The notes under the pieces are model-generated. The model was not told the origin of the DNA. It worked only from the letters and a program-made list of their open reading frames with translations, and made no database searches. From an uncultured Myxococcales bacterium (lineage in GTDB: Bacteria; Myxococcota_A; UBA9160; UBA4427), in NCBI GenBank assembly GCA_965603475.1, contig CBFDDD010000001.1, positions 40,003 to 104,002 on the forward strand: a stretch of 64,000 nucleotides of DNA. Direction: 5' to 3'. A program made the translations under genes and the position numbers. Positions 10,182-29,367 of this stretch are shown in pieces (positions within the stretch are counted from its first letter, which is position 1; each line of letters begins with the position of its first letter).

Positions 10182-10688
10182 ATGGCGACGCTAGTCAGCG
10201 TGTACGACATGCCCTCGGATGTTTCGACGGTCGTTCGGAAACTCAAATCACGGGGTTTCGAGGATCTCACGACCTATTCGCCCGCGCCCTTCGAGGAGAT
10301 CGAGGAAGCGGAGGATCCCAAGCCCTCCGGCGTTCGACTCTATACGCTCATCGGCGGTCTCTTGGGTGTCGTGACCGGCTTCGGAATACAGATCTGGATG
10401 TCGATGGATTGGCCGATCAAGATCGCAGGAAAGAACATCGCTGCGATTCCGCCCATGTGGATCATCGGCTTCGAACTGACGATTCTCTTCGGCGGCATCC
10501 TGACGGTCGTCGCACTCTTCATCAAGGGCGGTCTCTATCCACGTCCCTTGGACGAACATTACAGTCCGAGATTCTCCGCAGAGGAATTCGGCGTCGTCGT
10601 TCGTTGTGAGGAGCGAGACGTATCCGAGGTCGAATCCCTGATGCGCGGTCACAATGCCAAGGAGGTGACCCTTGCGGCCTCTCACTAG
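10182..10688 (+). CDS. actD: Alternative Complex III subunit ActD (DUF3341-type)
   Basis: A 168-aa protein with a soluble N-terminal part (VYDMPSDVSTVVRKLKSRGFEDLTTYSPAPF) and two TM helices. Its position between actC and actE fits, and the junction is TAAATG. Confidence 0.75.
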   Translation: MATLVSVYDMPSDVSTVVRKLKSRGFEDLTTYSPAPFEEIEEAEDPKPSGVRLYTLIGGLLGVVTGFGIQIWMSMDWPIKIAGKNIAAIPPMWIIGFELTILFGGILTVVALFIKGGLYPRPLDEHYSPRFSAEEFGVVVRCEERDVSEVESLMRGHNAKEVTLAASH

Positions 10689-12662: not shown

Positions 12663-14177
12663 ATGCCTTTCCACGACACGCCTTCTGAAGAGTCGTCGAG
12701 TCCCTGGGACGAACCCTCTCCGAATCGACGGATAGGGCTGGTTCGAGGCGGCGCGATCCTGCTCGAGCAGGATGGTTTCCGCGTCGTCGATGCGCGCCGC
12801 CGCAAACGGTCGAAGCTTCATCCCTATGAATCCATGACTCATGTCTACGCGGCCGACCGAATGCTGCTGGTTGGATTGACGTCAGGCCTGCTCACGATCC
12901 GCAATCGCGATTTCCCAGAGCCAGAGGAGGGCCCTAAAGAGGCACGCCGCATCTTGTTGGCTCGGCTGGCAGACCGTCCCGACGGTCAACACTGGATTGA
13001 AAAAATGACAGAAGTCGATCGCCTCGGCGATCGGAATGCGATGAGTCTGGTGACCTGGGCGACTGTTGCGCTCTGCGTGCTGGGGACCTGGTTTCAACTA
13101 CGAGAGCCCATGGTCGAGCAGGTTGGCGCATTCATTCCCGACCTCTTTGCGCGTGGCGAATTCTGGCGCGGCGTGACTGCGCACTTTCTACACGGTTTAT
13201 CACCTGCGCCTGGGCTCGTTACCTTCTTCACGGGAAATATCGCGGGTCTTCCCTTCCATCTCGCCATTAATGTCGGAGGGCTACTCGTACTTGGGCATCT
13301 CGTCGAGCGACCGCTCGGATCGTGGAGAACGGTAATCATTCTCGCTTGTGGCGGAGCAGGCACATTGGTAGGCATCATCTTTGCCGAGCACTACGAGGTC
13401 ATCGGCGCGTCGGGGCTCGTGTCGGCCTTCGCCGGTGCGATCCTGGCGATTGAACTCAACTTTCCGGCATCGCTTCCGAGTTATTGGCGCCTACCGAGAC
13501 GACTCTTCATCGCAGCACTGATCTTGCAGTTCTTCGTGATCGATCAAGTCCTCTCGAGTCATGTGGCCGGCGGAGCGCATCTCGGCGGTTTCATCGGAGG
13601 TTATCTGGCGGCGTGGATGTTGGGGCACCCTGATGTGGAGAGCCTGACGCCCAATTCAGGCCTGCGGTTCTCGACCTACTGTGTGACCGCTGTGCTGCTT
13701 CTGGGTATTTCGGGCGCTCTCCCGCTCACCCGCCACGACATGGGCGCGCTCGAGCGACACGCAACACGCATCTTGAATACGCCTCAGACGGTGAATCTCT
13801 ACCGGCACGAAAACGCGGCTGCCTGGTTCATTGCAACCGAAGGGGGCGCGAGCCCATTCGGTCTGGAACTCGCAGTGGCGCTTGCGGACCGCGCGGTCGT
13901 GAGCACGGGTGGGATGCATCCCGGAATCCTCGACACGCTGGCGGAGGCACTATTCCAGAGCGGAAATCGTCTCGGCGCTCTTCTCACGATCGACGAGGCC
14001 ATTCGCTTGATGCCGAACGAGGTCTACTTCATCGAGCAACGTCGGAGATTCACTGGGGAGCGAGCCGCTCATGATCGACCCCCGCCGCCGGGAAGCGAAG
14101 CCGAGGGCGCACCTCCCTTCGACAAAGATTTCGAACCGCAGTCGGTCGATCCAGGCGCCCCGATACTCACAATCTGA
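12663..14177 (+). CDS. rhomboid family intramembrane serine protease with N-terminal cytoplasmic domain and C-terminal helical-repeat domain
   Basis: Catalytic GxSG (IGASGLVSAFAG) and His (GGAHLGGFIGGY) lie in a 6-TM core. An N-terminal region of ~120 aa precedes the core, and a helical tail of ~150 aa follows it (ALADRAVV ... EALFQSGNRLGALLTIDEAIRL). Confidence 0.8.
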   Translation: MPFHDTPSEESSSPWDEPSPNRRIGLVRGGAILLEQDGFRVVDARRRKRSKLHPYESMTHVYAADRMLLVGLTSGLLTIRNRDFPEPEEGPKEARRILLARLADRPDGQHWIEKMTEVDRLGDRNAMSLVTWATVALCVLGTWFQLREPMVEQVGAFIPDLFARGEFWRGVTAHFLHGLSPAPGLVTFFTGNIAGLPFHLAINVGGLLVLGHLVERPLGSWRTVIILACGGAGTLVGIIFAEHYEVIGASGLVSAFAGAILAIELNFPASLPSYWRLPRRLFIAALILQFFVIDQVLSSHVAGGAHLGGFIGGYLAAWMLGHPDVESLTPNSGLRFSTYCVTAVLLLGISGALPLTRHDMGALERHATRILNTPQTVNLYRHENAAAWFIATEGGASPFGLELAVALADRAVVSTGGMHPGILDTLAEALFQSGNRLGALLTIDEAIRLMPNEVYFIEQRRRFTGERAAHDRPPPPGSEAEGAPPFDKDFEPQSVDPGAPILTI

Positions 14178-15209: not shown

Positions 15210-16193
15210 ATGGACGAGAGCGCTCCGGCGCAGATTGAAGAGCACGTACGGGTTTGCAATGACCTGATCAGCGAGGTCAGCAAGGTCGTCGTGGGTCAGG
15301 AAGCGATGATTTCACGCCTGCTCGTCGGCATTCTGTGTGGCGGCCATGTCCTGCTCGAAGGTGTTCCCGGCCTTGCGAAGACTCTGACGGTTCAGACCCT
15401 GGCGGAAGCCATCCATACTGGTTTTTCTCGGATCCAGTTCACGCCGGACATGCTGCCGGCCGACGTGATCGGCACTGAGATTTTCAACCCGCGTGATGGA
15501 ACCTACAGCGTCAAGAAAGGTCCGATCTTCTCGAACCTGATCCTGGCGGACGAGATCAATCGTGCGCCCGCAAAGGTCCAGGCGGCACTTCTCGAGGCGA
15601 TGCAGGAACGTCAGGTCACGATCGGAGGGACCACCTTTCGATTCGATGAGCCCTTCCTCGTGCTCGCTACGCAGAATCCAATCGAGCAGGAGGGAACCTA
15701 CCCCCTGCCCGAAGCACAGGTCGACCGCTTCATGCTCAAGGTCGTCGTAGGCTACCCCTCGAAGGAAGACGAACGAAAGATCGTCGACCGCATGGCGACC
15801 GGCCAGCCGGCACCTGTGGTGAGTGCGGTTGCGACGCCGGAGCAGATTCTGGCTGCCCGGAAGACGGTCGATCAGGTATTCGTCGACGAAAAGGTCAAGA
15901 GCTATGTCGTCGATCTCGTGCACGCGACCCGAGATCCAAAGGCCGCGGGATTCGCGGAGCTCGACGGGATGATCGAAATGGGCGCGTCGCCCCGAGCCTC
16001 GCTCTTCTTGACACGAGGGGCCAAGGCCAATGCTTTCCTGCAAGGGCGTAGTTATGCGACACCCCACGACGTCAAGAATCTTGCTCTCGACGTACTTCGA
16101 CATCGCATTGCGGTGACCTACGAAGCCGAGGCGCAGGGAAGAACGAGTGAGGATATCATCGACCGTATTCTCGCTGGCGTTCTCGTTCCCTGA
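15210..16193 (+). CDS. MoxR-family AAA+ ATPase
   Basis: VVGQEAMISRLLVGILCGGHVLLEGVPGLAKT (Walker A), ILADEINRAPAKVQAALLEAMQE (Walker B / sensor) and FLVLATQNP. Confidence 0.9.
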   Translation: MDESAPAQIEEHVRVCNDLISEVSKVVVGQEAMISRLLVGILCGGHVLLEGVPGLAKTLTVQTLAEAIHTGFSRIQFTPDMLPADVIGTEIFNPRDGTYSVKKGPIFSNLILADEINRAPAKVQAALLEAMQERQVTIGGTTFRFDEPFLVLATQNPIEQEGTYPLPEAQVDRFMLKVVVGYPSKEDERKIVDRMATGQPAPVVSAVATPEQILAARKTVDQVFVDEKVKSYVVDLVHATRDPKAAGFAELDGMIEMGASPRASLFLTRGAKANAFLQGRSYATPHDVKNLALDVLRHRIAVTYEAEAQGRTSEDIIDRILAGVLVP

Positions 16194-16214
16194 TTCGAGG
16201 CCAGGTAGTCGCCC

Positions 16215-17180
16215 ATGCTCACTAGCGAAATCCTCGGACGCGTCCGAGAAATCCAGGTTCGCACCGGCCGTCAGGTCGCCGATGTGTTAGCGGGCGAGTA
16301 CGTCTCGGTCTTCAAGGGACGTGGTGTCGAATTCGACGAGGTCAGGCCCTATGTGCCGGGGGACGATGTCCGATCGATCGACTGGAATGTCACCGCACGG
16401 ATGGGCGAGCCCTATATCAAGCGCTATGTAGAAGAGCGACAACTCACATTGATGTTGATGGCCGATGTATCCGCGTCCCAGGATTTTGGATCGGTGGGAC
16501 GAAGCAAGCGAGAGTCGACCGCTGAACTCTGCGCTCTGCTCGCGTTCTCGGCGACTCGCAACGATGACAAGGTCGGGCTGGCGCTCTTTCACGGTGATAT
16601 CGAGCAATACATCCCGCCGCGAAAAGGCCAGAAACATGCTTTGCGGGTCGTTCGCGAAGTCCTGGCCCACGGTCAGGAAGACTCCGGGGACGCCGAAGTC
16701 GCATCACAGGGACTCTTTTCGAGATTACGTGGTCTGGTCAATTTCCGCCGCAGGCCTCGCGCGCCGCGGGAGTCGACGGACATTCGGTTTGCCCTCGAAT
16801 TTTTCATGCAGGTCAATAAACGTCGCACGATTTGCTTCGTGGTGAGCGATTTCCTCGATGAGGGATTCGAGAAAGCAATGATCGTGGCGAACCGAAAACA
16901 CGACGTCATTGCAGTTCTCGTGACCGATCCGAACGAGCTCGACATGCCGAATGTCGGGCTGGTTACGCTGCGCGACGCGGAAACCGGCGAGACACAAGTC
17001 GTGGATACGGGTTCGAAGGCGTTTCGAACCGAAGTCCACGAACGTACGCAAGCGCGAGTGCGTGATCTCGCAGGGCGCTTCGCAGCGGTTGGGATCGACT
17101 TCATCCACGTCGACGCGGCCGGAGACGTCATTGACCCGCTCGTACGTTTTTTCCGTATGCGCGCGCTTCGAGGACGCTGA
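16215..17180 (+). CDS. DUF58 domain protein (VWA-like, MoxR partner)
   Basis: GEYVSVFKGRGVEFDEVRPYVPGDDVRSIDWNVTAR is the DUF58 signature. It sits immediately downstream of the MoxR gene. Confidence 0.85.
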   Translation: MLTSEILGRVREIQVRTGRQVADVLAGEYVSVFKGRGVEFDEVRPYVPGDDVRSIDWNVTARMGEPYIKRYVEERQLTLMLMADVSASQDFGSVGRSKRESTAELCALLAFSATRNDDKVGLALFHGDIEQYIPPRKGQKHALRVVREVLAHGQEDSGDAEVASQGLFSRLRGLVNFRRRPRAPRESTDIRFALEFFMQVNKRRTICFVVSDFLDEGFEKAMIVANRKHDVIAVLVTDPNELDMPNVGLVTLRDAETGETQVVDTGSKAFRTEVHERTQARVRDLAGRFAAVGIDFIHVDAAGDVIDPLVRFFRMRALRGR

Positions 17181-18187
17181 TGAGATCGGGAGTCCAAGCC
17201 ACGATTCGGTTCCTGTCCGTCGTTTTGATTCTCTCGGCGAGCGGGCTAGCCCGAGGCGCCGACAGCATCGAGCGTCAAAGCGAGCGTGGCCCCGTTCGCG
17301 TCGATCTCGCGATCACTCCAGCCGAGCCTGTGATCGGTGACGTGATCGAGCTTCGGCTGGAGGTCCACGCCGAGGCCGGTGTCGAAGTCATGATGCCGGA
17401 GTTCGGCGAAGCACTGGGTCGATTCGAGATCGTCGATTTTGCACCGAGCCAGCAGCAAGACGAAACGGGCGGGAGTATTGCGCGACAGGCCTATCGCCTG
17501 CAGCCAGCGCATTCGGGTACACAGACGATTCCGCCTCTACGCGTCGAATTCGTGGATCGCCGTGCTGGGCGCTCACCTGCGCCCGAAGGCGAAGACGCCT
17601 ACGAGGTCCTGACCGAGAGGGTTTCACTCGAGATTGCGCCGATTCTGGCGGAGGACGCTCCACTCGCGCTGCGCCCGGCGCATTCCGATCTTGGTCCGCG
17701 ACGAACGCCGTCGGGGCCGTGGTGGGTCTGGGCGGTAGCGCTGCTGCTGGCAGTGGGTGGGGCCGCGCCCTTTGCCTGGCGCGCATTCGTTGCTGCGCGT
17801 GAACGACAACGTAGACAGAGCGCGTACGACGTGGCCCGTTCGGCACTCGACTTGTTGCTTCAGGGAGGACGACCGACTGCGGCAACCATGGATCGGTTCT
17901 ATGTCGAGCTGTCGCTGATCGTGCGAAGCTATCTCGAAGATCGGTTTGCTCTGCGTTCTCCCGAGCTCACGACGCAAGAGTTCTTGACCGAAATGGGTCG
18001 CTCGCCCGATCTTGCGCGATCGCACCAGCAGCTTCTGCAGAATTTTCTCGAACAGGCGGATCTCGTCAAATTTGCGGGATATCGACCGGATGCCGAGGTC
18101 GTTTCCGAATCGATCGCTGCAGCAGAGAAGTTCCTGGGCGAGACACAGAACTTCGTTCGGACCACGGCGGAGTTGAGCCATGCCTGA
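17180..18187 (+). CDS. membrane protein with BatD-like N-terminal domain and DUF4381-like C-terminal domain
   Basis: Signal peptide, an Ig-like region resembling BatD (VRVDLAITPAEPVIGDVIELRLEV), one TM (WWVWAVALLLAVGGAAPFAW), then a DUF4381-like tail (TTQEFLTEM ... ADLVKFAGYRP). ATG overlaps the upstream TGA (TGATG). Confidence 0.5.
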   Translation: MRSGVQATIRFLSVVLILSASGLARGADSIERQSERGPVRVDLAITPAEPVIGDVIELRLEVHAEAGVEVMMPEFGEALGRFEIVDFAPSQQQDETGGSIARQAYRLQPAHSGTQTIPPLRVEFVDRRAGRSPAPEGEDAYEVLTERVSLEIAPILAEDAPLALRPAHSDLGPRRTPSGPWWVWAVALLLAVGGAAPFAWRAFVAARERQRRQSAYDVARSALDLLLQGGRPTAATMDRFYVELSLIVRSYLEDRFALRSPELTTQEFLTEMGRSPDLARSHQQLLQNFLEQADLVKFAGYRPDAEVVSESIAAAEKFLGETQNFVRTTAELSHA

Positions 18188-19217
18188 ACTGGCAAACTTC
18201 GAGTTCAGCGATCCGCTGCTGCTTCTCTTCGGTCTGTTGGCGCCCCTGGTGTACGTGCAGGCGAGCCGACTTCCATCCGTCGTCCACTATTCGAGCCTCC
18301 GCCTGGTCGCCGGGTCGACGCGGTCGCTTCGGTCGCGGCTGGGCTGGCTGCCCGCTGCGCTCCTGGCCCTGGCGACGCTGGCCTTGTCGGTCGCGCTGGC
18401 CGGCCCGAGAACGGGGAACTCCGTCAGTGAGGTGAAGCGAGAAGGCATCGCGATCGGGATGGTCGTCGATCGGTCCGGCTCGATGGAAGCGCGTGATTTC
18501 GTGCGCGGGGATACCAGTACGAGCCGACTCGATGTCGTGAAGAAGATCTTTCACGACTTCGTTGCCGGAGGAGGCAGTTTTGGGGAAGGTCGGGAAGACG
18601 ATCTGATCGGCCTGATCACTTTTGCACGTTATGCGGACGGGCTTTGTCCGTTGACTCTGGATCACGGGAGTCTGATTGCGATTCTCGACCAGATCGAGAC
18701 GCCTGTAGATCAGAATGAGGATGGAACCGCAGTCGGAGATGGGCTCGCACTCGCGGTCGAGCGGCTTCGCCGTCAAGAGGCGGCTTCGAAGATCGTCATT
18801 CTCCTGACCGACGGCGTCAACAACGCCGGTGAGATCGAACCGCTCCAGGCCGCGGAGCTGGCTGCTCAATACGGAATCAAGGTCTACACGATCGGTGCGG
18901 GTTATACCGGCTTTGCGCCTTATCCGGTTCGGCGTGCCGATGGTCGGACTTCGCTACAGCGCGTACCGGTTGAAATCGATGAGGTGACGTTGCAGCAGAT
19001 CGCACAGCGCAGTGGCGGTCGGTATTTTCATGCGACCAATGAGGAAGGGCTACGCGAGGTCATCGAGGAGATCGGGAGACTCGAGCGCAGCGAGGTCAGC
19101 GAGATTCGCTATCTCGAATACGACGTGCATTTTGCGCCCTTTGTGGCTTCGGCTCTCTTCCTCGTGACATTGGCTGCTCTGCTCTCGAGCACCTGGCTTC
19201 GGAGGTTGCCGGGATGA
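18180..19217 (+). CDS. VWA domain membrane protein, BatA-like
   Basis: N-terminal TM helices, MIDAS motif MVVDRSGSM, VILLTDGVNNAG, and a C-terminal TM. The start overlaps the upstream gene by 8 nt. Confidence 0.8.
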   Translation: MPELANFEFSDPLLLLFGLLAPLVYVQASRLPSVVHYSSLRLVAGSTRSLRSRLGWLPAALLALATLALSVALAGPRTGNSVSEVKREGIAIGMVVDRSGSMEARDFVRGDTSTSRLDVVKKIFHDFVAGGGSFGEGREDDLIGLITFARYADGLCPLTLDHGSLIAILDQIETPVDQNEDGTAVGDGLALAVERLRRQEAASKIVILLTDGVNNAGEIEPLQAAELAAQYGIKVYTIGAGYTGFAPYPVRRADGRTSLQRVPVEIDEVTLQQIAQRSGGRYFHATNEEGLREVIEEIGRLERSEVSEIRYLEYDVHFAPFVASALFLVTLAALLSSTWLRRLPG

Positions 19218-22200
19218 GCGATACACCCGTGCATTTCGTGCACCCCGAATTCATGCATGCGCTCTGGATCTGGGCATTCGCTGTGCTGGCACTCGTCTTG
19301 CTCGAGCGACGCGGTCACGGCGCGTTGGATCGGTTGGTGAGTCCCGCGCTGCGGGATCGGCTGGTCGACCGTCCCTCGCGCTGGCGGCGTTGGGCGCGCG
19401 TCGGGCTGCTCGGGTTGGCAGGGTTTTCGATGATCGTGGCCCTCATGCAGCCGCAGTGGGGCTCTCGCTTCGTGGCGACGCCGCGTGTCGGCGCGGAGAT
19501 CATGATCGCGCTCGATGTTTCGCGCTCGATGCTGGCAGACGATGCGAAACCCTCGCGACTCGAGCGTGCGAAGGCCGAGATCTCCGATCTGCTTTCGTAT
19601 CTCGATGACGACTATGTCGGCTTGATCGCCTTTGCGGGCAGGGCAGCCGTGCTCTCCCCGATGACTCCAGACAAGAGCTTTCTGCGCCTCGCTCTCGATC
19701 GGGCGGGGCCCCATGTCGTCTCGCGAGGCGGAACGAGCCTGGCCGAACCGATTCTTCGCGCCGTGGCCGGGATGGGCGAGCCGGGTCCTGCCCAGCGAGC
19801 GCTGCTCCTGATCACGGACGGAGAGGATCACGATTCCTTCGCAATGGACGCCGCAAAGACCGCGGCAGAGGCAGGAATCAAGATCATCGCGATCGGATTT
19901 GGCGACGAGGCCGGAAGCCAGATCTATCTTCGCGATCCGAAAACCGGCGCGCGTAGCCTTCTGCGTGACGGGGAAGGGCGCGCGGTCGTCAGTCGGCTCG
20001 ACGGTGATCTGCTTAGGGAGATTGCGCTCGAGACGGATGGCGCCTTTGTGCCTGCCGGTACAGGCGTGTTGGATCTGGCTTCGATCTACGATGCACACAT
20101 TGCACCGTTGACCCGAGGTCAACTCGATGAACGGGGTCGGACGATTCGGGACGAAGCCTTCCAGTTCTTCGTCCTGTTCGCGATCATCTGCCTTGTCGCC
20201 GCCGCGTCGATCGCTTCAGCATCGGGATCGAAGCGCGCCACGCGTGCATCGCGAGTCGTTCCGCTCTTAGTGGCGATCGTGTTTCTTTCAGTTTCAGCAC
20301 CGCCAGTCCATGCTCAATCCGAAGAAGCCGCCTCTCCCGCGCCACCGACCACTCCTGAAACACCCGCAATTCCGGGGCCAGACGGAGCGGGGCTTTCCGA
20401 GGATGCGAGCGGGACGAAAGAGGATTCCCGCTCGAGATTCAACCGTGGGAACGAGAAGCTCGAGGCCGGTGATCCGGTCGCGGCGACCGCGCTGCTGCGT
20501 GAAGCAAGGCGTGACGCGACCGATGATGTCGTTCTTCGTTATGCGGCGACCTACAATCTAGGTATGGCTGCGGCGGCAAGAGCAGACGCCCTCGAAGCCG
20601 AAAACGCGTCGGAGGCATTGGCCGCACTCTATGAAGCGGCAGACTGGTTTCGCGAGGCGGTCGTGGCGAGACCGGATGAGTCGGATCCACGTCACAATCT
20701 CGACGTGACACTGCGCCGTGCGCTGATTCTGTCGGATCAGATCTCGCGCGAGGACGCGAAAGAACTCGATGTAGAAATCGACGCGATGATCGAGGCCCAG
20801 CGGCAACACGTCGCTCAGACGGCGGGATTGCTCGAGGCGGTCGTGAGAGCCGGGGAGCTCGGTGCGGCCGAAGAACTGCGCCCGGCTTTTCGCGATTCCG
20901 CGACGCAACAGCGACTCATGCTTTCGGACGCGAACGCCCTGGGCGAGCGCGTCGCACGCGAACGAGAACAATTGATGGCTGCAGCGGAGGAGGAGCGTTC
21001 GCCTGAAGATGCTCTCAAAGCGGCACAGCTCGAGGCGGTTCTCGTTCATCTCGACAGTGCGATCGATCGAATGGGACAGACCCGCCGGCAACTTCGACAG
21101 CGCAGGGCAGAGCGTGCGTATCGCCGTGGCTCGAACGCGCTGGGAGATCTGAAGCGAGCCCGTGATCAGCTGCGCGACCTGGTTCCGCAGATCGATATCC
21201 TGTTGGCCGAAGTCGGGCAGCTCGCGAATTCGACAAGCGCCTTGGCCAATGCCGGACTATTGAGGGATCCCACGGCTGGGACGACGCAGCCGGCTGGCCT
21301 ACCCGCATTCTTGACTCGCGAGTCGGTCGAAGCCGATAGTGGGCAGATCGAAGCGCGGGTTGTCGAGTTGGCGACACGCCTCTCGCTTGCGGCGGAGCAG
21401 GCGCTGCAAGCCTCGGCGCCGGGTAGCTCGCCCGAGACTTCACCGCCGGGTTCGCCGGACCCAGCAACGCAAGCGATCGCATTCCAGTCGGCGGCGCCGC
21501 TCGTCGATTCGGCCGGTAGCGCAATGGCTCGGGTGACGGCGTCGATCGGCGCGGGCAACTACGATCTGGGGCTGCTCGACGAAGTGAAAGCCGGTGAAGC
21601 TCTGGCGGCGGCACGAGAGCATTTCCTGGACCTTCGCCAGCTCCTCAACGTGACCTATTCCGACGAGCAGCAGATCGCGAGGCTTGCCAGCTCCGACGAT
21701 CCGGCGCTCGTGCAGGAGCGTGAGGAGGTCGTGGTCGGACTCGCGGAAATTCAAGTGCAGAACAGCCAGCGAGTCCTTCGACTGGAGAAACTTCTGGAAC
21801 AGGAAAAGGCTTCTCGAATCGCACAGCTCGAAGCCGAGGCGACACCCGATGCGAATGCGCCCGAGGATGACAATGGGGGTCCGGTAGAACAGGAGCGACG
21901 TCGATTTGAGCTGGCCGATCAACTGCTTGCCCTGGCATCGGAGGGCATGGGAGAGACGACGGATGCACTCGGTCGAGCGGACGCCGAGCGCGCTCCCGAC
22001 TGGCCGCGGGTGAGCGAGGCGGCGACGCGCGCCACGGAGCATCTCGATGGAATCCGGACACTCTTCTTCTCGATCGCGGAACACGTGCGAAAGCTTGCCC
22101 AGGATCAGATCGACGTGCGCGATCGAACCCAGGATGTGATCGCGCTTTCAGTGACCGAATCAACGCCCAGTGGTGAAGCGAATACGCCCGAGTCATCCGA

Positions 22201-22843
22201 AGGGGCCGATGCAGCTGAATCGACGAGCGTTTCGGAGACTGAGTCGGAGTCCGAGCCGCCTCCCGAGTCGCGCGGCCCCGAGACCTTGATTCGCTCCCAG
22301 GCCCTCGCAGGCGAGCAGCAGAAGCTCGAAGCACGTGGAGGAGAACTGGCCGATGCACTCTTCGTGCAGGCAGAGGAGATGGGGCAGGGGGCAACCGAAG
22401 ACGCTCCGCCGGATGCGGGCGCCGAGCGCGACCGGATTCGAAAAGCAGCAGAGCATATTGCGCTTGCGCAGCTCGCGATGGTCGACGCGAGTGAGTCGTT
22501 GGAGGCGGAAACCGAACCACTGGCGCCGGCGCAAGTCGCCCAGACGCTGGCCGTCGACGAGCTGAACGCGGCGCTCGCCCTGCTTTCGCCCCCTCCTCCG
22601 CCGGAGCAGGGCGACCCGGAACAGGACGAATCGCAGTCGGAAGACGACTCGCAGGAAGATGGCGAGGAGGAAGAACAGGGAGATGGCGGGGCCGAGGCCA
22701 GTCCAGAGGATGCGGAGGAAGAATCGATGGACGACCTTTCGCAGCTGCTGCAAGGTGTTCGGGATCGTGACGCTGAAAGACGGCGTGATCAAGATCGAGA
22801 AGAGCAGCGACGGCGTACGGAGCCCGTGGGCAAAGATTGGTGA
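19214..22843 (+). CDS. giant VWA + TPR protein (BatB/BatC-like fusion) with long helical spacer and poly-acidic C-terminal tail
   Basis: Two N-terminal TMs, VWA MIDAS IALDVSRSM, LLLITDGEDHD, a third TM (FFVLFAIICLVAAASIASA) and a TPR-like RFNRGNEKLEAGDPVAATALLREA. About 700 aa of Ala/Glu/Arg/Leu-rich helix follow, then an acidic tail from aa 1125 (PPPPPEQGDPEQDESQSEDDSQEDGEEEEQ). The start forms an ATGA overlap. Confidence 0.7.
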   Translation: MSDTPVHFVHPEFMHALWIWAFAVLALVLLERRGHGALDRLVSPALRDRLVDRPSRWRRWARVGLLGLAGFSMIVALMQPQWGSRFVATPRVGAEIMIALDVSRSMLADDAKPSRLERAKAEISDLLSYLDDDYVGLIAFAGRAAVLSPMTPDKSFLRLALDRAGPHVVSRGGTSLAEPILRAVAGMGEPGPAQRALLLITDGEDHDSFAMDAAKTAAEAGIKIIAIGFGDEAGSQIYLRDPKTGARSLLRDGEGRAVVSRLDGDLLREIALETDGAFVPAGTGVLDLASIYDAHIAPLTRGQLDERGRTIRDEAFQFFVLFAIICLVAAASIASASGSKRATRASRVVPLLVAIVFLSVSAPPVHAQSEEAASPAPPTTPETPAIPGPDGAGLSEDASGTKEDSRSRFNRGNEKLEAGDPVAATALLREARRDATDDVVLRYAATYNLGMAAAARADALEAENASEALAALYEAADWFREAVVARPDESDPRHNLDVTLRRALILSDQISREDAKELDVEIDAMIEAQRQHVAQTAGLLEAVVRAGELGAAEELRPAFRDSATQQRLMLSDANALGERVAREREQLMAAAEEERSPEDALKAAQLEAVLVHLDSAIDRMGQTRRQLRQRRAERAYRRGSNALGDLKRARDQLRDLVPQIDILLAEVGQLANSTSALANAGLLRDPTAGTTQPAGLPAFLTRESVEADSGQIEARVVELATRLSLAAEQALQASAPGSSPETSPPGSPDPATQAIAFQSAAPLVDSAGSAMARVTASIGAGNYDLGLLDEVKAGEALAAAREHFLDLRQLLNVTYSDEQQIARLASSDDPALVQEREEVVVGLAEIQVQNSQRVLRLEKLLEQEKASRIAQLEAEATPDANAPEDDNGGPVEQERRRFELADQLLALASEGMGETTDALGRADAERAPDWPRVSEAATRATEHLDGIRTLFFSIAEHVRKLAQDQIDVRDRTQDVIALSVTESTPSGEANTPESSEGADAAESTSVSETESESEPPPESRGPETLIRSQALAGEQQKLEARGGELADALFVQAEEMGQGATEDAPPDAGAERDRIRKAAEHIALAQLAMVDASESLEAETEPLAPAQVAQTLAVDELNAALALLSPPPPPEQGDPEQDESQSEDDSQEDGEEEEQGDGGAEASPEDAEEESMDDLSQLLQGVRDRDAERRRDQDREEQRRRTEPVGKDW

Positions 22844-24798
22844 AGCGCAAGACCAGTACATCCCTGATCGGTCCGACCCGCGAAGGCACTCGCCGTGACG
22901 TTGTCCTGCTGTGTGTGTGGCAACGCGTGTTGCTACGAAGGTTGGGCGTTGCGAGCGTTCTCGGCCTGATGCTCCTGGCGGCCCCCGCCGTCGCGCAAGA
23001 CGTTCAGATCCAGATCGCCCGTGGACCCCATTATGTTGGCGAGGCCTTCGAGGTCCAAGTCGTTGCGAGTGATTTCGAGGAGGAGCCGCCTCCGGAGATC
23101 TCCGCCGGTCCTCTCGAAGGTGGACGTCTTCGTTATGTTGGCGTCTCGCCGAGTACTTCGACTTCGATCTCGATCATCAATGGAAAAATGAGTCGGGTAC
23201 ACGAAGTGACCTTCGTCTATCGATACGAATTGACCGGAACACGGGAGGGCCGAATCAAGATTTCTCCCTTCACCGTGGCCCAGGCGAACACTTCGCTCAG
23301 TACGCGCAGCTTCGATGTCGCCGTTGAAGGCGTTCCAGAAACGAATGACGTCGAGCTTGTGCTCGAGCTGCCCAAAGGTCCGATCTTCGTTGGACAGAAG
23401 GTTCCGGTCGCAATCGAGTTTCGCATCGATCGTCAGACTCAAAAGGACCTGATCTCCTATCAGGTCGACGTGCCCCTTTTTGATTCACCCACACTTCGTT
23501 TTCTCGACGAGCCACCTCCGCGGACCGATACGCAACTCGAAATCCAGACCGAGGCTGGCGTACTCCGGCTGGCTGCGGTCTCTTCGGAAACACAAATCCG
23601 AGGTCGACCGGCGCTGGTCGTTCGTGCCGAGAGGACGATGATCGCGATCTCGCCCGAAGAGATTCGGGCTGAGGCGCCGAAGGTCTTCATCAGCCAGGGA
23701 GCGGGTTTCCGTCGTGATGTCTTCAATCAGCGTCGGCCGACATCGACCGAGAAATTCATGGCGGTTGGAAGGCCCGTTCGGCTCGAGGTGATCGAGGTTC
23801 CGCGAACGGGTCGGCCAGCGAGTTTTGCGGGTGCGGTCGGGGCGGGCTTCAGCCTCGAGGTCGATGCGGATCGGAGTGTCGTGCAGCTGGGCGAGCCGAT
23901 CATGCTTTCGTTTCATCTCCGAGGCAATGGCGATCTTTCGAGTGCCAGTCTGCCGGCCCTCGGCGCCGAAGGGCTCTTCGATCCGACTCGCTTTCGACTC
24001 CCGCAAGATTCTCCGGCCGGGCTCGTCGACGAAGACGGGAAGCATTTCGAGGTGACTCTGCGAGTCCTGGACGCAGGGGTTCGGGAAATCCCAGCGCTGG
24101 CCTATTCGTGGTTTGATGCCGAGACTCGTCGTTTCGAAACGACTCGATCGCGACCGATCGCGCTTTCGGTCGGTGCGGCCGAGATCATTGGCGCCGACTC
24201 TGTTGCGCGACGTGACGGCGCTATTTCAGTGGCAGAAACGGAAGTGAAGGCTGCAGATCGCCCTCCCGAGCTTCCCGGCGATGGAACCGAGCGAAGCACG
24301 AAGTTGTCCCTGACGGGCGCAAACCTGGCGGTCGACCGTGATCTGACGCGACTACTTCGCGACGGGCACATGCAAGGACAGAATCTGGTGGTGACGCTGC
24401 CTCTCTACACGGCGGGCCTCGCCTTTCTCGCTCTGGCCGGTGTGATGGCGCGTCGTCGCGCAGCCGACCCACGACTCAGGGAGCGGACACAGGCGCTCAG
24501 CCAGGCGGAGCGGGCGATCACGAAAGCGTTCGGGCGATCCGACGGAGGCGGTCCAGCGGCTCTCGGTCGCGCTCTCAGGGAGTTGGTCGCGGCTCTTCCG
24601 AACGAGGCGAGTGCCGAGTTCGATCAGCTGATCGCGGAGTGTGACACCCTTCGATTCGCGCCGACTGCGGCTAGATCAGAGTCTGGCATAGAGGCCGCGG
24701 ATGGCTGTCCGCCCATTCCTCCAGACCTCCAGGAGCGGGCGCGACGCTTGATCGCCGAACGCATGAATCTGGATGGCGATTCCCTGGAGGACTCATGA
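22837..24798 (+). CDS. BatD-like (oxygen-tolerance family) exported protein with C-terminal TM
   Basis: Signal peptide (VLGLMLLAAPAVAQD), repeated Ig-like segments (FEVQVVASDFEE, FTVAQANTSLSTRSFDVAVEG), and a late TM (LVVTLPLYTAGLAFLALAGVMA). The exact start is uncertain; TTG 22837 is from the ORF track and later starts are possible. Confidence 0.6.
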   Translation: MVKRKTSTSLIGPTREGTRRDVVLLCVWQRVLLRRLGVASVLGLMLLAAPAVAQDVQIQIARGPHYVGEAFEVQVVASDFEEEPPPEISAGPLEGGRLRYVGVSPSTSTSISIINGKMSRVHEVTFVYRYELTGTREGRIKISPFTVAQANTSLSTRSFDVAVEGVPETNDVELVLELPKGPIFVGQKVPVAIEFRIDRQTQKDLISYQVDVPLFDSPTLRFLDEPPPRTDTQLEIQTEAGVLRLAAVSSETQIRGRPALVVRAERTMIAISPEEIRAEAPKVFISQGAGFRRDVFNQRRPTSTEKFMAVGRPVRLEVIEVPRTGRPASFAGAVGAGFSLEVDADRSVVQLGEPIMLSFHLRGNGDLSSASLPALGAEGLFDPTRFRLPQDSPAGLVDEDGKHFEVTLRVLDAGVREIPALAYSWFDAETRRFETTRSRPIALSVGAAEIIGADSVARRDGAISVAETEVKAADRPPELPGDGTERSTKLSLTGANLAVDRDLTRLLRDGHMQGQNLVVTLPLYTAGLAFLALAGVMARRRAADPRLRERTQALSQAERAITKAFGRSDGGGPAALGRALRELVAALPNEASAEFDQLIAECDTLRFAPTAARSESGIEAADGCPPIPPDLQERARRLIAERMNLDGDSLEDS

Positions 24799-25598
24799 AG
24801 CGTTCGGCCTTTGCGATCCTCGCTTTGATTTCGATCGGGCTCGTTGGGCCGGCCGCAGCGGGGTCGAATGCCTCGGATCAGGCCGAACGATTGGAGCAGG
24901 CGCTCAGCCAGTATGCGCAGGCCCTGGAGGAGCCGGATCGCGACGAACGGCTCGCGATCTTCGCGCAGGCCGAATACGGGTTCGATGCAGTGATCGAAGG
25001 TGGGACGGAAAATGCGTCCCTCTATACGAACCTCGGAAACGCAGCTCTTCAGGCGGAGCATATCGGGCAGGCTGTACTCGCGTATCATCGAGCGCTTCGA
25101 CTCGATCCCGATGCGACAACGGCGCGTCAGAATCTGATCCATCTTCGTACGCTCCTTCCGGGCTGGGTTCCGAGACCGACTTCATCCGACAGCGTGCAGC
25201 CGCTCTTCTTCTATCGTCGGATCTCGACAGCGAACCGTTCGTATCTGGCCGCGGGTTGTTTTGTTCTGGCCGCGGCGAGTCTCGCGATTTCCGTGCGTCG
25301 CCGTGAAGGGGCGTGGCGCGGAGCCGCTCTCATGGGCGGAGTGGCCTGGGCACTGATCGTGGCCTCGATCGTCTTCGATTCGGCCGAAAGCAGGACCGAG
25401 TTGGCTGTCATCACCGCTGACGAGGCGTTCGCCCGATCAGCAGACTCGCGGCTTGCGGCGCTCGCCTATCCCGACCCCCTACCCGGAGGCGTCGAGGTGG
25501 AACAGCTCGAGGAACGTGCCGACTGGACGAGGGTACGATTACAAAACGGTCGCGACGTGTGGGTGCGCGGGTCGGACGTGACGCGCGTGGTAGAGTGA
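24795..25598 (+). CDS. TPR + SH3b protein, BatE-like
   Basis: Signal peptide, TPR (NLGNAALQAEHIGQAVLAYHRALRLDPD), TM segments, and a C-terminal SH3-like WTRVRLQNGRDVWVRGSDV. ATGA overlap with the upstream gene. Confidence 0.6.
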   Translation: MKRSAFAILALISIGLVGPAAAGSNASDQAERLEQALSQYAQALEEPDRDERLAIFAQAEYGFDAVIEGGTENASLYTNLGNAALQAEHIGQAVLAYHRALRLDPDATTARQNLIHLRTLLPGWVPRPTSSDSVQPLFFYRRISTANRSYLAAGCFVLAAASLAISVRRREGAWRGAALMGGVAWALIVASIVFDSAESRTELAVITADEAFARSADSRLAALAYPDPLPGGVEVEQLEERADWTRVRLQNGRDVWVRGSDVTRVVE

Positions 25599-25677
25599 TC
25601 CACCAGGCTGCGAACGTGATATTGATTCCAGTTCGAATTAGTCGGATCGGTTGCATCGATTGAGAGGGGGGTGGCTC

Positions 25678-26838
25678 ATGGCCCGAATTCGAGTTGCCAT
25701 CGCAGGTGTCGGCAACTGCGCGAGCGCGCTGATTCAGGGAATCGAATACTACCGAACGCGCAGCGAGGCCGAGCACGTCGGATTGATGCACGCCCAGATT
25801 GCTGGCTATCGATCGTCGGATATCGAGATCGTGGCCGCCTTCGATGTCGACTCGAGAAAGGTGGGAACTCCGCTGGAGGAGGCGGTCTTTGCGGCGCCGA
25901 ATTGCGCTCAGGTCTTTGCGCCCGAGTTACCTGCGAGCGGAGTCGAGGTCCAGATGGGGCCCGTCCTGGATGGTGTGGCGCCGCATATGGAAAACTACCC
26001 GGAGTCCGAGGCGGTTCGCCTATCAGATCAGTCAGCGGTCGATGTCGTCGATGTGCTCAAGGCGACAGGAGCTGAAGTCCTCATCTGTTATTTGCCCGTC
26101 GGATCGGAACTCGCCGTGCGACATTATGCGCAGGCCTGTCTCGATGCGGGTGTTGCGTTGGTCAATTGTGTACCGGTCTTCATCGCATCGGACAGCTCCA
26201 CGGACAGCTCCACAGAGAAAGGCTGGCCCGAACGATTCAGGGCTGCGGGGCTTCCGATCATCGGCGATGATATCAAGAGCCAGGTGGGCGCGACGATCGT
26301 GCATCGAACGATTGGTCGTCTGCTGGCGGATCGTGGTGTCGAACTCGATCGGACCTATCAACTGAACACGGGCGGTAACACCGATTTTCTCAACATGTTG
26401 GAGAGAGACCGCCTCCAGTCGAAGAAGATCTCGAAGACGGAATCGGTACAGAGCCAGTTGGGCCAACGACTCGATTCTCGAGAGATCCATATTGGCCCTT
26501 CGGACTACGTTTCCTGGCAGAATGACAACAAGATTGCATTCATCCGCCTGGAAGGGCGGGGATTCGGGGGTGTGCCGCTCGAACTCGAACTTCGGCTCTC
26601 GGTACAGGATTCTCCAAACAGCGCCGGAGTCGTCATCGACGCTGTGCGCTGCGCAAAGCTCGCTCTCGATCGAGGCCTGGCCGGGCCGCTCGAGGTCCCG
26701 AGTGCCTATTTCATGAAGAGTCCGCCCGTACAGATGCGTGATGACGAGGCGAGACGCGCACTCGACCGCTTCATCGAGGACAAACCGCTTGCGAGCGCAT
26801 CGGATGAGGCTAAGAGATTCCCGTCCCGAGAGACGTAG
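25678..26838 (+). CDS. ino1: myo-inositol-1-phosphate synthase
   Basis: N-terminus [25 protein letters not shown], then [15 protein letters not shown] and [11 protein letters not shown], typical of bacterial/archaeal-type MIPS. Start set at ATG 25678. Confidence 0.85.
26191..26214 (+). repeat. in-frame tandem 12-nt duplication inside ino1
   Basis: GACAGCTCCACG is followed by GACAGCTCCACA (11 of 12 identical), encoding DSSTDSST. Confidence 0.8.
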
Positions 26839-26945: not shown

Positions 26946-27488
26946 TTGCCGCAAAGCGTTCCACCCCACTATTGTTCGAGCGTGAATTCAACCCCCCCGG
27001 CTGATTCGACGTCTCCACGTCGCAACCGCTCTCGTCAGCGAGAACGTATCCGAAGCTGGCTTCAGCAGACCGATTCCCATCCGACGGCGGCCGATATCCA
27101 CGAAGCGCTGTTGCCCGAGATGTCTGGGCTCTCGCTCGGGACCATCTACCGAAACCTCGAGATACTCGTTGCCGACGGCGAGATTGATGAGGTTCCGTCC
27201 ACGGTTGGTGCAACACGCTACGACGGGAACGTTCTGCCCCATCATCATTTCAATTGCGAGCGATGCGGGAGAATCCTCGATGTGGATCTGCCGGTCCCGC
27301 GCGGGCTCACTCGACGTCTCGCCGACGACCATGGGCTTCACTCGAGTCGTACTCGAATTTCTTTCTTCGGACTCTGCTCCGTCTGTACGGAGAGTCCGGG
27401 GTTGGATGGAATGAACGATCAACCAGGACCAATCAAGCTCAATCAAGAACCAATCAACCAATCCAGGAGGAGGAACAGACATGGGTGA
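26946..27488 (+). CDS. Fur-family metalloregulator (PerR-like by context)
   Basis: Winged helix (SLGTIYRNLEILVADGEIDEV) and metal sites HHHFNCERCG and CSVC. The stop overlaps the rubrerythrin ATG by 8 nt. Start is uncertain: TTG 26946 or in-frame GTG 26982. Confidence 0.8.
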   Translation: MPQSVPPHYCSSVNSTPPADSTSPRRNRSRQRERIRSWLQQTDSHPTAADIHEALLPEMSGLSLGTIYRNLEILVADGEIDEVPSTVGATRYDGNVLPHHHFNCERCGRILDVDLPVPRGLTRRLADDHGLHSSRTRISFFGLCSVCTESPGLDGMNDQPGPIKLNQEPINQSRRRNRHG

Positions 27489-27906
27489 CCTGAAGGGAAG
27501 CCAGACGCACCAGAATCTCAAGGACGCCTTTGCGGGCGAGTCCCAGGCCAACCGCCGCTATCTCTATTTCGCGAAGCAGGCCGACATCGAGGGCTACCCG
27601 GACGTGGGTGGACTTTTTCGTGATACCGGGGAGGCCGAGACCGGTCATGCCCATGGTCATCTCGACTACTTGAAGCGCGTGGGCGATCCCGCGACCGATC
27701 TACCGATTGGTGACACGGGGCAGAACCTCGCTGCGGCCGTTGCGGGAGAGACCTACGAGTACACGGAGATGTATCCGGGTATGGCGAAGACGGCGCGCGA
27801 CGAGGGTCACGCGGATGTTGCGGAATGGTTCGAGACGCTCGCGAAGGCGGAGAAGTCCCATGCGGGACGTTTCCAGAAGGCGCTCGATACGCTGGAGACT
27901 CTGTAG
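27481..27906 (+). CDS. rubrerythrin-family diiron protein (no rubredoxin domain)
   Basis: [26 protein letters not shown] plus [10 protein letters not shown] and [11 protein letters not shown] plus AEKSHAGRF give the four-helix diiron ExxH pattern. At 141 aa it has no C-terminal CxxC pairs. Confidence 0.85.
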
Positions 27907-27946
27907 GCCATCGGCCGACATGAGTCGCTGCGTTGTGTGCTTGATC

Positions 27947-27986
27947 GCTGTGCGCTCGAAGTCGGTTTTCGGCTCGGGCGCACAGC
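27947..27986 (+). terminator. GC-rich hairpin between rubrerythrin and the Fe-S gene (partial terminator or processing/attenuation site)
   Basis: GCTGTGCGC (27947-27955) pairs perfectly with GCGCACAGC (27978-27986) around a 22-nt loop. The following TGTCGTTTCG is only weakly U-rich. Confidence 0.35.
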
Positions 27987-28011
27987 TGTCGTTTCGAGGT
28001 AGGGGCAAGTC

Positions 28012-29280
28012 TTGAAGAACGCGAGCCTGAGGGACGCTGAATTTCTCGATCGAGAACATCTCGACGCAGAGCTCACGCGCGTTTTCGAGAAATGCCACGA
28101 CTGCCGTCGTTGTCTTCCGCTCTGTCCATCATTTCCGAGCCTCTTCGATGCGATTGATCGCCACGAACAAGAAGCCTCACTGCTCAGCACGAGCGAAACG
28201 CGCGAGGTCGTCGACCTCTGCTACCAGTGCAAGCTCTGTTTCAACCACTGCCCCTACCATCCGCCGCACGAGTGGGAAGTCGATTTTCCGAAGTTGATGA
28301 CGAGGGCCAAGCTCGTCTATGCGCAGGAGGAAGGAATTCCACTTTCGGAGCGAATTGGCGCGCAACAAGATCTCATGGGCAAGGTGTCCTGCCGAACGGC
28401 CTCGTTGACGAATGCAGCCTTCAAGAATCGGGCCGTCCGTCTGTTGATGGAGAAGACGACGGGCATCGATCGGCGATGGATCATGCCGACCTACGACAAA
28501 CAGCCTTTCTCCAGAGTGCTTGCTGCGGGCGCCGCCCGGTCTGAAGCCGCGTCGACCGAAGAACGCGGCCGCGTGATTCTATTCAGCACCTGCTTCGTCG
28601 AGTACAGCGAAGCGGAGACCGCGATCGCGGCCGTGCAAGTCCTCGAACACAACGGGATTCGAGTGGAGGCTGGCTATGACGCCTGCTGTGGAGCGCCCTT
28701 TCTTCACGGCGGAGATCTCGCGAGTGCGCGTCGGAATGCAGAAAAGGTGGTGGCCGCTCTGGCCCCGCGCATTCGGGATGGGCTCCAGGTGGTCGTTCCG
28801 GGGCCAACGTGTTCATATCAACTCAAGAACGAGTTTCCCGAGATGCTGGATACGGAAGAGGCCCGGTTGGTTGCCGACAACACGCTCGATCTCGGGGAAT
28901 ACGTGTTCAAGATTGCGGCTGCGAAACAGCTCGACCGGGACTTCAAGAAGAAACTGGGGCGTATCGCCTATCATCTGCCATGCCATCTCAAAGCACAGAA
29001 TATCGGGTTTCGCTCGAAACAGATCCTCGGGCTGATCGCCGATGAAGTCGTGATGATCGACGCCTGTTCGGGCGTCGACGGAACCTGGGGCATGAAGGCC
29101 CGTCACTACGAACAGAGTCTCAAGATCTGTTCGAATTTGACGAGTTCGATCAACGAAGCCGACCCGGATCATGTCGCAACGGACTGTCCGCTCTCGGCAC
29201 TCCGAATCAAGGAACAGACGGGTCGAGAGGCGGTTCATCCGATCGTGCTCTTGCGCGATGCGTATGGATTCGAGAACTGA
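28012..29280 (+). CDS. (Fe-S)-binding protein with two 4Fe-4S motifs and two CCG-type domains (HdrD/GlpC-like)
   Basis: CHDCRRCLPLCP and CYQCKLCFNHCPY are followed by DACCGAPF and PCHLKAQ ... IDACSGVDGTWG. TTG start. Confidence 0.8.
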   Translation: MKNASLRDAEFLDREHLDAELTRVFEKCHDCRRCLPLCPSFPSLFDAIDRHEQEASLLSTSETREVVDLCYQCKLCFNHCPYHPPHEWEVDFPKLMTRAKLVYAQEEGIPLSERIGAQQDLMGKVSCRTASLTNAAFKNRAVRLLMEKTTGIDRRWIMPTYDKQPFSRVLAAGAARSEAASTEERGRVILFSTCFVEYSEAETAIAAVQVLEHNGIRVEAGYDACCGAPFLHGGDLASARRNAEKVVAALAPRIRDGLQVVVPGPTCSYQLKNEFPEMLDTEEARLVADNTLDLGEYVFKIAAAKQLDRDFKKKLGRIAYHLPCHLKAQNIGFRSKQILGLIADEVVMIDACSGVDGTWGMKARHYEQSLKICSNLTSSINEADPDHVATDCPLSALRIKEQTGREAVHPIVLLRDAYGFEN

Positions 29281-29367
29281 TCGGGCCGATCGGCGGGCCG
29301 TTCACGCCAATTGAACTTCCCGATACTTCCTACACCTATTTTCTACATTTCGAACGAGGAGGCAGCC

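Follow-up and report, generated by a model that had tools for sequence, protein, structure and literature searches.

A canonical Bat-type MoxR-DUF58-VWA envelope operon with a predicted BatB::BatC fusion in an uncultured member of the Myxococcales

The 64,000-nucleotide (nt) stretch of the genome of an uncultured Myxococcales bacterium that is analysed here (contig CBFDDD010000001.1 of the assembly GCA_965603475.1, positions 40,003 to 104,002 of the forward strand; hereafter, the window) contains, at positions 15210-25598, a canonical operon of the Bat type, i.e. an envelope operon with genes for a MoxR ATPase of the MRP subfamily, a DUF58 protein and VWA domain proteins, and is in this respect an ordinary member of the family. 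The seven co-directional open reading frames (ORFs) on the plus strand encode, in this order, MoxR, DUF58, an orf3-type membrane protein, BatA, a BatB-like protein of 1209 amino acids (aa), BatD and BatE. [quoted passage not shown] With moderate confidence, we favour the reading that the products of this operon form a periplasmic scaffold that would be driven by MoxR and DUF58 and act on client proteins of the envelope, the position of the operon next to the genes of alternative complex III (ACIII) being a matter of lineage-local synteny. Few bacterial gene clusters that still lack a mechanism are as widespread as the Bat operons.

Gene content and conservation of the operon

The initial annotation of the window had proposed a seven-ORF Bat-type operon with this gene order and with coordinates read from the sequence, and both are confirmed by the ORFs, by Pfam and NCBIfam matches and by profile matches to structures in the PDB (Table 1). 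Adjacent genes overlap at five of the six junctions, the sole exception being the 21-nt gap between moxR and the DUF58 gene that directly follows it. Four of the overlaps that had been listed are present in the sequence, namely TGATG at 17178-17182 between DUF58 and orf3 (1 nt), 8 nt at 18180-18187 between orf3 and batA, and ATGA at 19214-19217 and at 24795-24798, at the batA/batB::batC and batD/batE junctions, respectively. The fifth had been taken for a 7-nt overlap (22837-22843) and is probably shorter: GTG at 22840, which yields a 4-nt overlap (GTGA), is a likelier start of batD than TTG at 22837 because the gene call on an identical public contig (L081) starts there and because the relatives overlap by 4 nt. 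The overlapping stop and start codons indicate translational coupling; the additional claim of stoichiometric co-translation goes beyond what overlaps alone can prove. A Shine-Dalgarno-like AAAGGAGAG lies upstream of moxR.

The comparison set consisted of 88 related loci, each taken with +/-10 kb, from Myxococcota, Desulfobacterota, Planctomycetota, Verrucomicrobiota, Bacteroidota, Nitrospinota, Spirochaetota, Poribacteria, Magnetococcales, Gammaproteobacteria and other groups. The closest named relatives of the window organism are metagenome-assembled genomes of Myxococcales/Myxococcota, and the same operon is found in Desulfobacterales, Syntrophobacterales, Scalinduaceae, Omnitrophota and Bacteroidales. 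Five or more core genes are present in 64 of these loci, from more than 10 phyla, and all but one of the 64 (63/64) have them collinear on a single strand; the tight coupling that had been proposed for the window is thus conserved, as is the gene order.

Among the closest known systems is the BatI locus of Bacteroides fragilis, moxR-DUF58-orf3-batA-batB-batC-batD-batE (Tang et al. 1999), which consists of the same modules in the same order; in the window, a fusion of BatB with a ‘long' BatC brings the eight classical modules down to seven genes. A Bacteroidales locus (L026) shows the unfused state, with MoxR, DUF58, orf3, BatA, a BatB of 345 aa, a TPR-containing BatC of 223 aa, BatD and BatE (TPR and SH3) connected by overlapping junctions. 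The window differs from BatI in that BatB and BatC make up one 1209-aa polypeptide, in that its BatC includes a helical-bundle segment of ~620 aa which is absent from the 223-266-aa BatC of Bacteroidales, and in its host, an aerobic-type respirer with ACIII. The spirochaete clusters (batA, batB and batD of Leptospira; bb0170-bb0176 of Borrelia) have the MoxR, DUF58, VWA, TPR and SH3 modules in common with the window and contain module fusions of their own, such as the Leptospira BatB with TPR and the Borrelia BB0170, which combines BatD, TPR and SH3 (PMC3557215, PMC5700661). The difference is that no long helical BatC is described in spirochaetes, and the identity of the core proteins is about 27-41% (L078).

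The motifs of the MoxR ATPase are intact, with the Walker A motif GVPGLAKT at residue 51 and the Walker B motif LILADE at residue 110. Profile matches assign it to the MRP/AAA_3 type and not to the RavA or CbbQ/NorQ (CGN) types: the RavA model PRK13531 yields 18.8 bits against a cut-off of 681, and none of the CbbQ/NorQ models matched in the Pfam/NCBIfam scan. A MIDAS motif of the form DxSxS is carried by each of DUF58 (DVSAS at residue 84), BatA (DRSGS at residue 97) and BatB. DUF58, for which no solved structural relative was found, is a candidate adaptor of MoxR.

The topologies of the proteins were predicted from hydropathy and the positive-inside rule. MoxR and DUF58 are predicted to be cytoplasmic, the latter because hydropathy detects no transmembrane (TM) helix in it. 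BatA would start with a double-TM hairpin enclosing an Arg-rich cytoplasmic loop, followed by the periplasmic VWA domain and a C-terminal TM. This agrees with the experimental topology of the Borrelia homologue BB0173, an inner membrane protein with three TMs and the VWA domain in the periplasm (PMC5700661), which supports the scaffold reading. The BatB module is predicted to have the same layout (TM1, Arg-rich cytoplasmic loop, TM2, periplasmic VWA, TM3), so that both BatA and BatB are likely to be N-out with VWA domains in the periplasm. The orf3 protein and BatD are predicted to be bitopic, with immunoglobulin (Ig)-like domains in the periplasm and tails in the cytoplasm: for orf3, a signal peptide, a periplasmic BatD-like domain (residues 27-180), a TM (181-199) and a 136-aa DUF4381-like tail; for BatD, a signal or anchor sequence, ~460 periplasmic residues, a TM (518-536) and a 117-aa tail. 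BatE, with a signal peptide, a TPR region, two TMs and an SH3-like C-terminus, and BatC are expected to be periplasmic. The proposal that the operon encodes a single envelope assembly fits these predictions because the products appear to be membrane or periplasmic proteins; the exceptions are MoxR and DUF58.

The identification of the less conserved subunits draws on relatives. The Bacteroidales orf3 protein, at the same position in the operon, shows the same pair of weak matches to BatD and DUF4381 as the window protein, and a positional homologue between DUF58 and BatA is present in 59 of the 88 loci. The TPR and SH3_3 matches of the window BatE are reproduced more strongly in the Bacteroidales orthologue from L026 (9e-10 and 4.6e-6, respectively). 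A BLASTP comparison of the cytoplasmic tail of orf3 with that of BatD (E = 28) lends no support to homology between the two.

Bat-like clusters also occur on large plasmids and chromids of Alpha- and Betaproteobacteria (L089-L091), namely in Paracoccus methylovorus (L089), Sinorhizobium and Caballeronia; the Paracoccus cluster is annotated merely as AAA ATPase, DUF58, VWA and ‘BatD family'.

Table 1. Coordinates of the features discussed in the text (positions in the window or in the named locus).
Feature	Sequence	Coordinates	Strand	Length or residues	Evidence or remarks
ActA-F genes (ACIII)	window	4764-12599			ActD, PF11821 at 5e-38; ActF, ActC paralogue, 9e-11
Rhomboid-family protein	window	12663-14177		504 aa	Rhomboid 5.9e-14; weak rhombosortase match 9e-8
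MoxR AAA+ ATPase, MRP subfamily	window	15210..16193	+	327 aa	Pfam AAA_3 5.8e-65, AAA_lid_2 5.5e-22
DUF58 protein, VWA-like core	window	16215..17180	+	321 aa	Pfam DUF58 2.7e-74, VWA_2 9e-10
orf3-type bitopic membrane protein (predicted)	window	17180..18187	+	335 aa	Pfam BatD 4.4e-4, DUF4381 3.9e-3, both below cut-off
BatA	window	18180..19217	+	345 aa	Pfam VWA 1.3e-18, BatA N-terminal domain 6.7e-6; NCBIfam BatA_Lepto 2e-45
BatB::BatC protein (predicted fusion)	window	19214-22843	+	1209 aa	Pfam VWA_2 6.3e-17 alone, residues 96-233
BatB module	window	19214..20221	+	residues 1-336	profile vs PDB: 3ibs ‘BatB' 6.6e-46, 4jdu 1.4e-41 (solved Bacteroides BatB VWA domains)
TM4, putative relic BatC signal peptide	window	20255..20311	+	residues 348-366	n-region KRATRASR, hydrophobic core, then VHA|Q
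Degenerate TPR-like BatC head, five helices	window	20426..20758	+	residues 405-515	BLASTP to Bacteroidales BatC, AlphaFold2, Foldseek
Helical-bundle extension, specific to ‘long BatC'	window	20759..22615	+	residues 516-1134, ~620 aa	all alpha-helical, acidic
Acidic disordered linker (residues 1135-1172) and conserved BatC tail helix	window	22616..22840	+		AlphaFold2; ends ...EPVGKDW-COOH
BatC tail, example	window	22736-22840
BatC ORF, example	L040	7032-7820
BatC ORF, example	L034	11808-12599
BatC ORF, example	L004	11075-13699
BatD	window	22840..24798	+	~652 aa from GTG 22840	Pfam BatD (PF13584) 6.7e-14
BatE	window	24795..25598	+	267 aa	Pfam TPR_2 1.6e-5, SH3_3 4e-3, both below cut-off
ino1	window	25651-26838			TIGR03450 9e-140
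ino1	L082	16367-17557
ino1	L092	10159-11271
ino1	L093	16635-17777
ino1	L094	16564-17670
ino1	L088	16521-17699
ino1	L001	~17498
Rubrerythrin, CCG/4Fe-4S protein, DUF3501	window	27481-29943
DsbH/DUF255 thioredoxin-like protein	window	38008-40371		787 aa	2e-71
Cytochrome P450	window	45206-46549
Type I polyketide synthase, single module	window	51133-57384		2083 aa	KS-AT-DH-ER-ACP by Pfam
Bat-like cluster	L089 (Paracoccus methylovorus p1)	302296-307979			AAA ATPase, DUF58, VWA, ‘BatD family'

The BatB::BatC fusion and the BatC terminus

By sequence comparison, the 1209-aa protein is best described as BatB fused to a long BatC. Its BatB module is homologous to the solved VWA domains of Bacteroides BatB (3ibs, 4jdu), and the MIDAS residues D101, S103, S105, T174 and D202 are invariant across the family of this protein (denoted P5). 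The full length is conserved at 43-92% identity in ~100 metagenomic proteins, which are annotated merely as ‘VWA domain-containing', and an identical copy of the gene was found on a single 6-kb Logan contig (L081) only.

The initial annotation had described this protein as VWA plus TPR. The VWA part is confirmed by the matches to Pfam VWA_2 and to the BatB structures. The TPR part is not recovered by Pfam, which detects no TPR in the window protein and finds TPR in 2 of the 18 family members; yet the identity of the C-terminal part as BatC is well supported, the TPR signal itself being weak. For residues 405-515, there is a weak alignment (BLASTP E = 0.03) to the TPR repeats that Bacteroidales BatC has in the equivalent place. 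In the AlphaFold2 (AF2) model of residues 340-1209, built from an alignment of 55 sequences, the whole region is alpha-helical (mean pLDDT 83.8, pTM 0.72), the helices of the BatC head (H66-174) have pLDDT values >95, and TPR proteins are among the Foldseek matches. The BatC of BatI has a signal peptide, TPR and a KDW or KNW C-terminus, and the window protein shares with it an apparent relic of the signal peptide and the KDW tail. The relic is TM4: in many phyla, the signal peptide with which the stand-alone BatCs open is of the classical kind and closes with AxA|Q, and AxA|Q is conserved at the position of TM4 in the P5 family and kept in all the BatB::BatC fusions examined, hence the interpretation of TM4 as what is left of the BatC signal peptide. 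The VHA|Q sequence of the window protein is a possible signal peptidase I site at which the fusion may be cut into a membrane-bound BatB and a soluble periplasmic BatC; the signal-peptide-like segment including this site covers 20255-20320 (residues 348-369).

The extension that separates the BatC head from the tail models as a generic tandem helical-bundle architecture without demonstrable homology. No Pfam family covers it in the window protein or in 18 family members, and the Foldseek search of the PDB returned, besides TPR proteins, weak matches to alpha-catenin and vinculin (E ~1.5e-3, global TM scores 0.17-0.27). The extension family is small (a search of 1.84 billion proteins gives 410 representative clusters at E <= 1e-3) and occurs either fused after BatB or in stand-alone ‘long BatC' proteins of 750-900 aa (e.g. 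L004, L011). In the model, the extension is followed by a linker with pLDDT <50 and by the tail helix with pLDDT ~90. DUF4175, which was prompted as the identity of the extension by a weak match of the L014 BatC, was rejected given that none of the P5 family members match it.

BatB::BatC fusions of 850-1075 aa with KDW or RDW ends are also present in the Planctomycetes-Verrucomicrobia-Chlamydiae (PVC) superphylum (L022, L028, L046, L048, L052, L055, L058, L062, L067, L076). Because tblastn detects no similarity between the middle regions of these fusions and the window extension, BatC may have lengthened more than once. The fusion of BatB to a long BatC is a modest architectural variant, of which no description was found in the literature searched.

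The C-terminus of BatC is nearly uniform. The motif [KRE][DN]W-COOH terminates the BatC or BatB::BatC ORF in 65 of the 88 loci (for examples, see Table 1), compared with 3 of the 3,088 ORFs of 100 aa or more that make up the rest of these loci and served as background. The near-invariant ending, ...V-(E/D)-K-D-W-COOH, is shared by more than 10 phyla and comes after a low-complexity linker rich in Q/E and a conserved helix. Between the TPR head and the KDW tail, both of which are fixed, the length of BatC varies from 158 to 1245 aa. Docking of short C-terminal peptides has precedents in the binding of EEVD by Hop and of SKL by Pex5. The KDW-COOH peptide may bind TPR; no report of such an end was found in the literature searched.

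This variation in length between fixed ends is what would be expected of a spacer, and it is an argument for the main rival of the scaffold-and-client reading, namely that the Bat system is a structural tether or sensor of the envelope, in which the VWA domains, the Ig-like BatD, the SH3 domain and the BatC rod would make up a periplasm-spanning scaffold that is assembled or reset by MoxR and whose loss would lead to envelope fragility and pleiotropic stress phenotypes. The long BatC is predicted to be a chain of helical bundles, the best structural matches of which are the adhesion adaptors alpha-catenin and vinculin, and the SH3-like domain of BatE may contact the cell wall. Mutants of Riemerella and Francisella show pleiotropic stress phenotypes (PMC11834572), and the MoxR and VWA cluster Arc2 of Pseudomonas aeruginosa protects against a membrane pore-forming toxin (PMC8926400), a lead that does not involve sequence comparison. 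However, the structural matches are weak and generic for helical bundles, contact with the outer membrane or the peptidoglycan is only presumed, the bat mutants of Leptospira are morphologically normal (PMC3557215), and the invariant MIDAS sites fit the binding of a ligand or client at least equally well. The tether, although plausible, is on the whole unlikely.

A more specific and considerably more doubtful scheme is that BatC may be a periplasmic spacer of variable length, the KDW-COOH end of which would dock into the TPR of BatE or BatC. In the Myxococcota clade of the window, this spacer would have been extended to the ~620-aa helical-bundle rod; cut from BatB by signal peptidase at the conserved AxA|Q, the rod would allow the inner membrane Bat complex, powered by MoxR, to reach distant clients or structures in the periplasm, and ino1, the conserved gene following batE, might tie the system to an envelope biogenesis that involves inositol lipids.

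Genomic neighbours of the operon

The flanks of the operon are as initially described. Upstream, moxR starts 2611 nt past actF, the last of the ACIII genes (the 2.6 kb of the initial annotation), with the genes for a rhomboid-family protein and a luciferase-like (LLM) oxidoreductase in between; downstream, batE is followed by ino1, by a Fur-family gene with best matches to PerR models and by rubrerythrin. From these flanks, a link of the operon to ACIII and to oxidative stress genes had been proposed, and the broader comparison does not support this link. MoxR and no less than 4 kb of sequence upstream of it are available in 50 loci, of which 3 only (L082, L085, L086) have act genes next to the operon, all from one sub-clade of Myxococcota. 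In these loci, the order of ActC-D-E-F, rhomboid, LLM and Bat is the same as in the window, and actF and moxR are always separated by the same two unrelated genes. The 1209-aa protein is 58-63% identical to its counterparts in these three loci and 51-56% identical to those in five clade members without adjacent ACIII (L087, L093, L094, L088, L001), and MoxR is equally similar in both groups (84-86% vs 82-89%). In the latter five, the upstream genes are different: four have a sulfatase, three of these also a TonB-dependent receptor, and L001 retains LLM only. The Fur/PerR and rubrerythrin genes are located downstream in the closest relatives only, in some cases with at least five genes inserted in between.

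The groups that carry the Bat operon outside this clade include lineages generally regarded as strict anaerobes, and Borrelia lacks a respiratory chain. The presence of the operon in Borrelia (PMC5700661) and in the anaerobes, together with the adjacency to act in only 3 of 50 loci, its loss in equally similar sister loci and the subtype of MoxR, leads us to conclude that the proximity to ACIII is best read as lineage-local synteny and not as functional coupling.

The alternative, a chaperone dedicated to the maturation or protection of ACIII or of neighbouring envelope redox proteins that was recruited specifically in this clade, can invoke the conservation of the ACIII-rhomboid-LLM-Bat order in the window and in three independent contigs, the genes for rubrerythrin, DUF3501 and a CCG/Fe-S protein that the window, L082, L084, L086 and L092 contain in the 10 kb downstream, and the periplasm-facing haem and Fe-S subunits of ACIII. 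MoxR and VWA pairs mature respiratory enzymes and metalloenzymes elsewhere, as in the case of RavA-ViaA with Nuo and Frd (PMC3893208, PMC10585395). These precedents, on which the initial annotation relied, share with the window the logic of a MoxR-family AAA+ ATPase paired with a VWA/MIDAS partner. RavA-ViaA, NorQ-NorD, CbbQ-CbbO and CoxD-CoxE, however, differ from the window in that they belong to other MoxR subfamilies, as the scores of the window MoxR illustrate (AAA_3 5.8e-65; RavA 18.8 bits), and in that their partners are soluble cytoplasmic proteins with cytoplasm-facing clients, whereas for BatA and BatB the VWA domains are placed in the periplasm by prediction; the linkage of the Bat operon to the genes of a client, here ACIII, is not conserved. 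In a full-text literature search, the sole joint mention of ACIII and MoxR was in the description of a SAR324 genome, which draws no functional link. Weighed against the scattered distribution outlined above, a dedicated role in ACIII maturation is highly improbable.

The original model of aerotolerance, in which the Bat complex would either repair periplasmic proteins damaged by oxidation through their reduction or serve the export of reducing equivalents, could likewise appeal to the PerR-like and rubrerythrin genes near the operon in the window. Its experimental basis is the reduced aerotolerance of a B. fragilis batD mutant, for which reductants make up in part (Tang et al. 1999, cited after PMC3557215), and the increased sensitivity of Riemerella batA mutants to H2O2 (PMC11834572). 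Against it, Pfam and NCBIfam reveal no redox domain, no cysteine motif and no domain for cofactor binding in any of the seven proteins, the Leptospira mutants show no oxidative stress phenotype (PMC3557215), and the rubrerythrin/PerR neighbourhood is not kept beyond the closest relatives. This model is accordingly very unlikely to describe what the operon does.

The ino1 gene, for inositol-3-phosphate synthase, directly follows batE in the window, L082/83, L084, L085, L088, L092, L093, L094 and L001, with a weaker match (43%) in that place in L087, and overlaps batE by 4 nt in L092; it is a more persistent neighbour than ACIII and is retained also in loci without the ACIII neighbourhood. Alignment of the BatE-ino1 spacer across the relatives revealed no conserved element. 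A link of the Bat system to inositol lipids is possible.

Several other features of these neighbourhoods can be recorded. The 504-aa rhomboid that directly follows actF in the window, L082, L085 and L086 could be an ACIII-associated protease or merely syntenic. The rubrerythrin, which is short (141 aa, without the rubredoxin domain), the GlpC-like CCG/4Fe-4S protein and DUF3501 make up a conserved trio that is present in the window and in L084, L086 and L092. Genes for P450, globin and GST flank the Bat operon in L087 and L088, both without ACIII. Farther downstream in the window are a DsbH/DUF255 thioredoxin-like protein, a cytochrome P450 and a single large type I polyketide synthase module (Table 1).

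A possible mode of action

MxaRSACKL, which acts on the pyrroloquinoline quinone (PQQ)-dependent methanol dehydrogenase, is alone among the Bat-like modules in having a defined biochemical output: in a reconstituted Escherichia coli system, all six proteins, MxaR, S, A, C, K and L, are needed for the insertion of Ca2+ into this periplasmic enzyme (PMC12276312). The order of the Mxa genes (MoxR-class ATPase, DUF58/VWA protein, small protein of the membrane or periplasm, VWA protein, small protein, second VWA protein) matches the window by domain order only (PMC12276312), and BatD, BatE and the long BatC are without stated Mxa counterparts. The ORFs scanned in the window included no recognisable gene for a PQQ dehydrogenase.

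The combination of the MxaRSACKL precedent with the predicted topology leads to the model that we favour. A cytoplasmic MoxR hexamer would use DUF58 as a VWA-type adaptor, and the two together would engage the cytoplasmic loops and tails of the membrane Bat subunits. ATP-driven conformational work could in this manner pass across the inner membrane to the periplasmic scaffold of MIDAS, Ig and TPR modules, and the scaffold would bind, remodel or metallate one or more client proteins of the envelope. The outcome would be a chaperone or cofactor insertion activity in a compartment without ATP.

Several observations weigh against this model. The coupling of ATP to the periplasm and the action on clients are parts that we infer by analogy. 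Deletion of the bat genes in Leptospira had no effect on growth, morphology or oxidative stress resistance (PMC3557215), and the moxR and batA mutants of Riemerella showed opposite effects under oxidative stress (PMC11834572). Promoter and terminator scans of the 12.5-28.1 kb region gave counts equal to the shuffled expectation, and folding of the six intergenic regions yielded no significant hairpin. A tblastn search of plasmids with BatA retrieved only further Bat-like clusters and no mxa cluster.

The analysis of the window removes the tempting lead of ACIII maturation as unsupported and adds to the parts list of the Bat systems. The defining features of BatC are now a signal peptide followed by a TPR head, a spacer that varies about eight-fold in length and a nearly invariant KDW-COOH terminus. 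The ‘long BatC' is confidently modelled as a helical rod, which is either fused to BatB or stands alone, and a signal-peptidase-type site appears to be kept in the fusion. Three of these features, namely the KDW-COOH terminus, the spacer of variable length and the relic of the signal peptide, constitute minor new findings on BatC in general. Together with the insertion of Ca2+ by MxaRSACKL, they provide a frame for how an AAA+ ATPase residing in the cytoplasm could perform periplasmic work.

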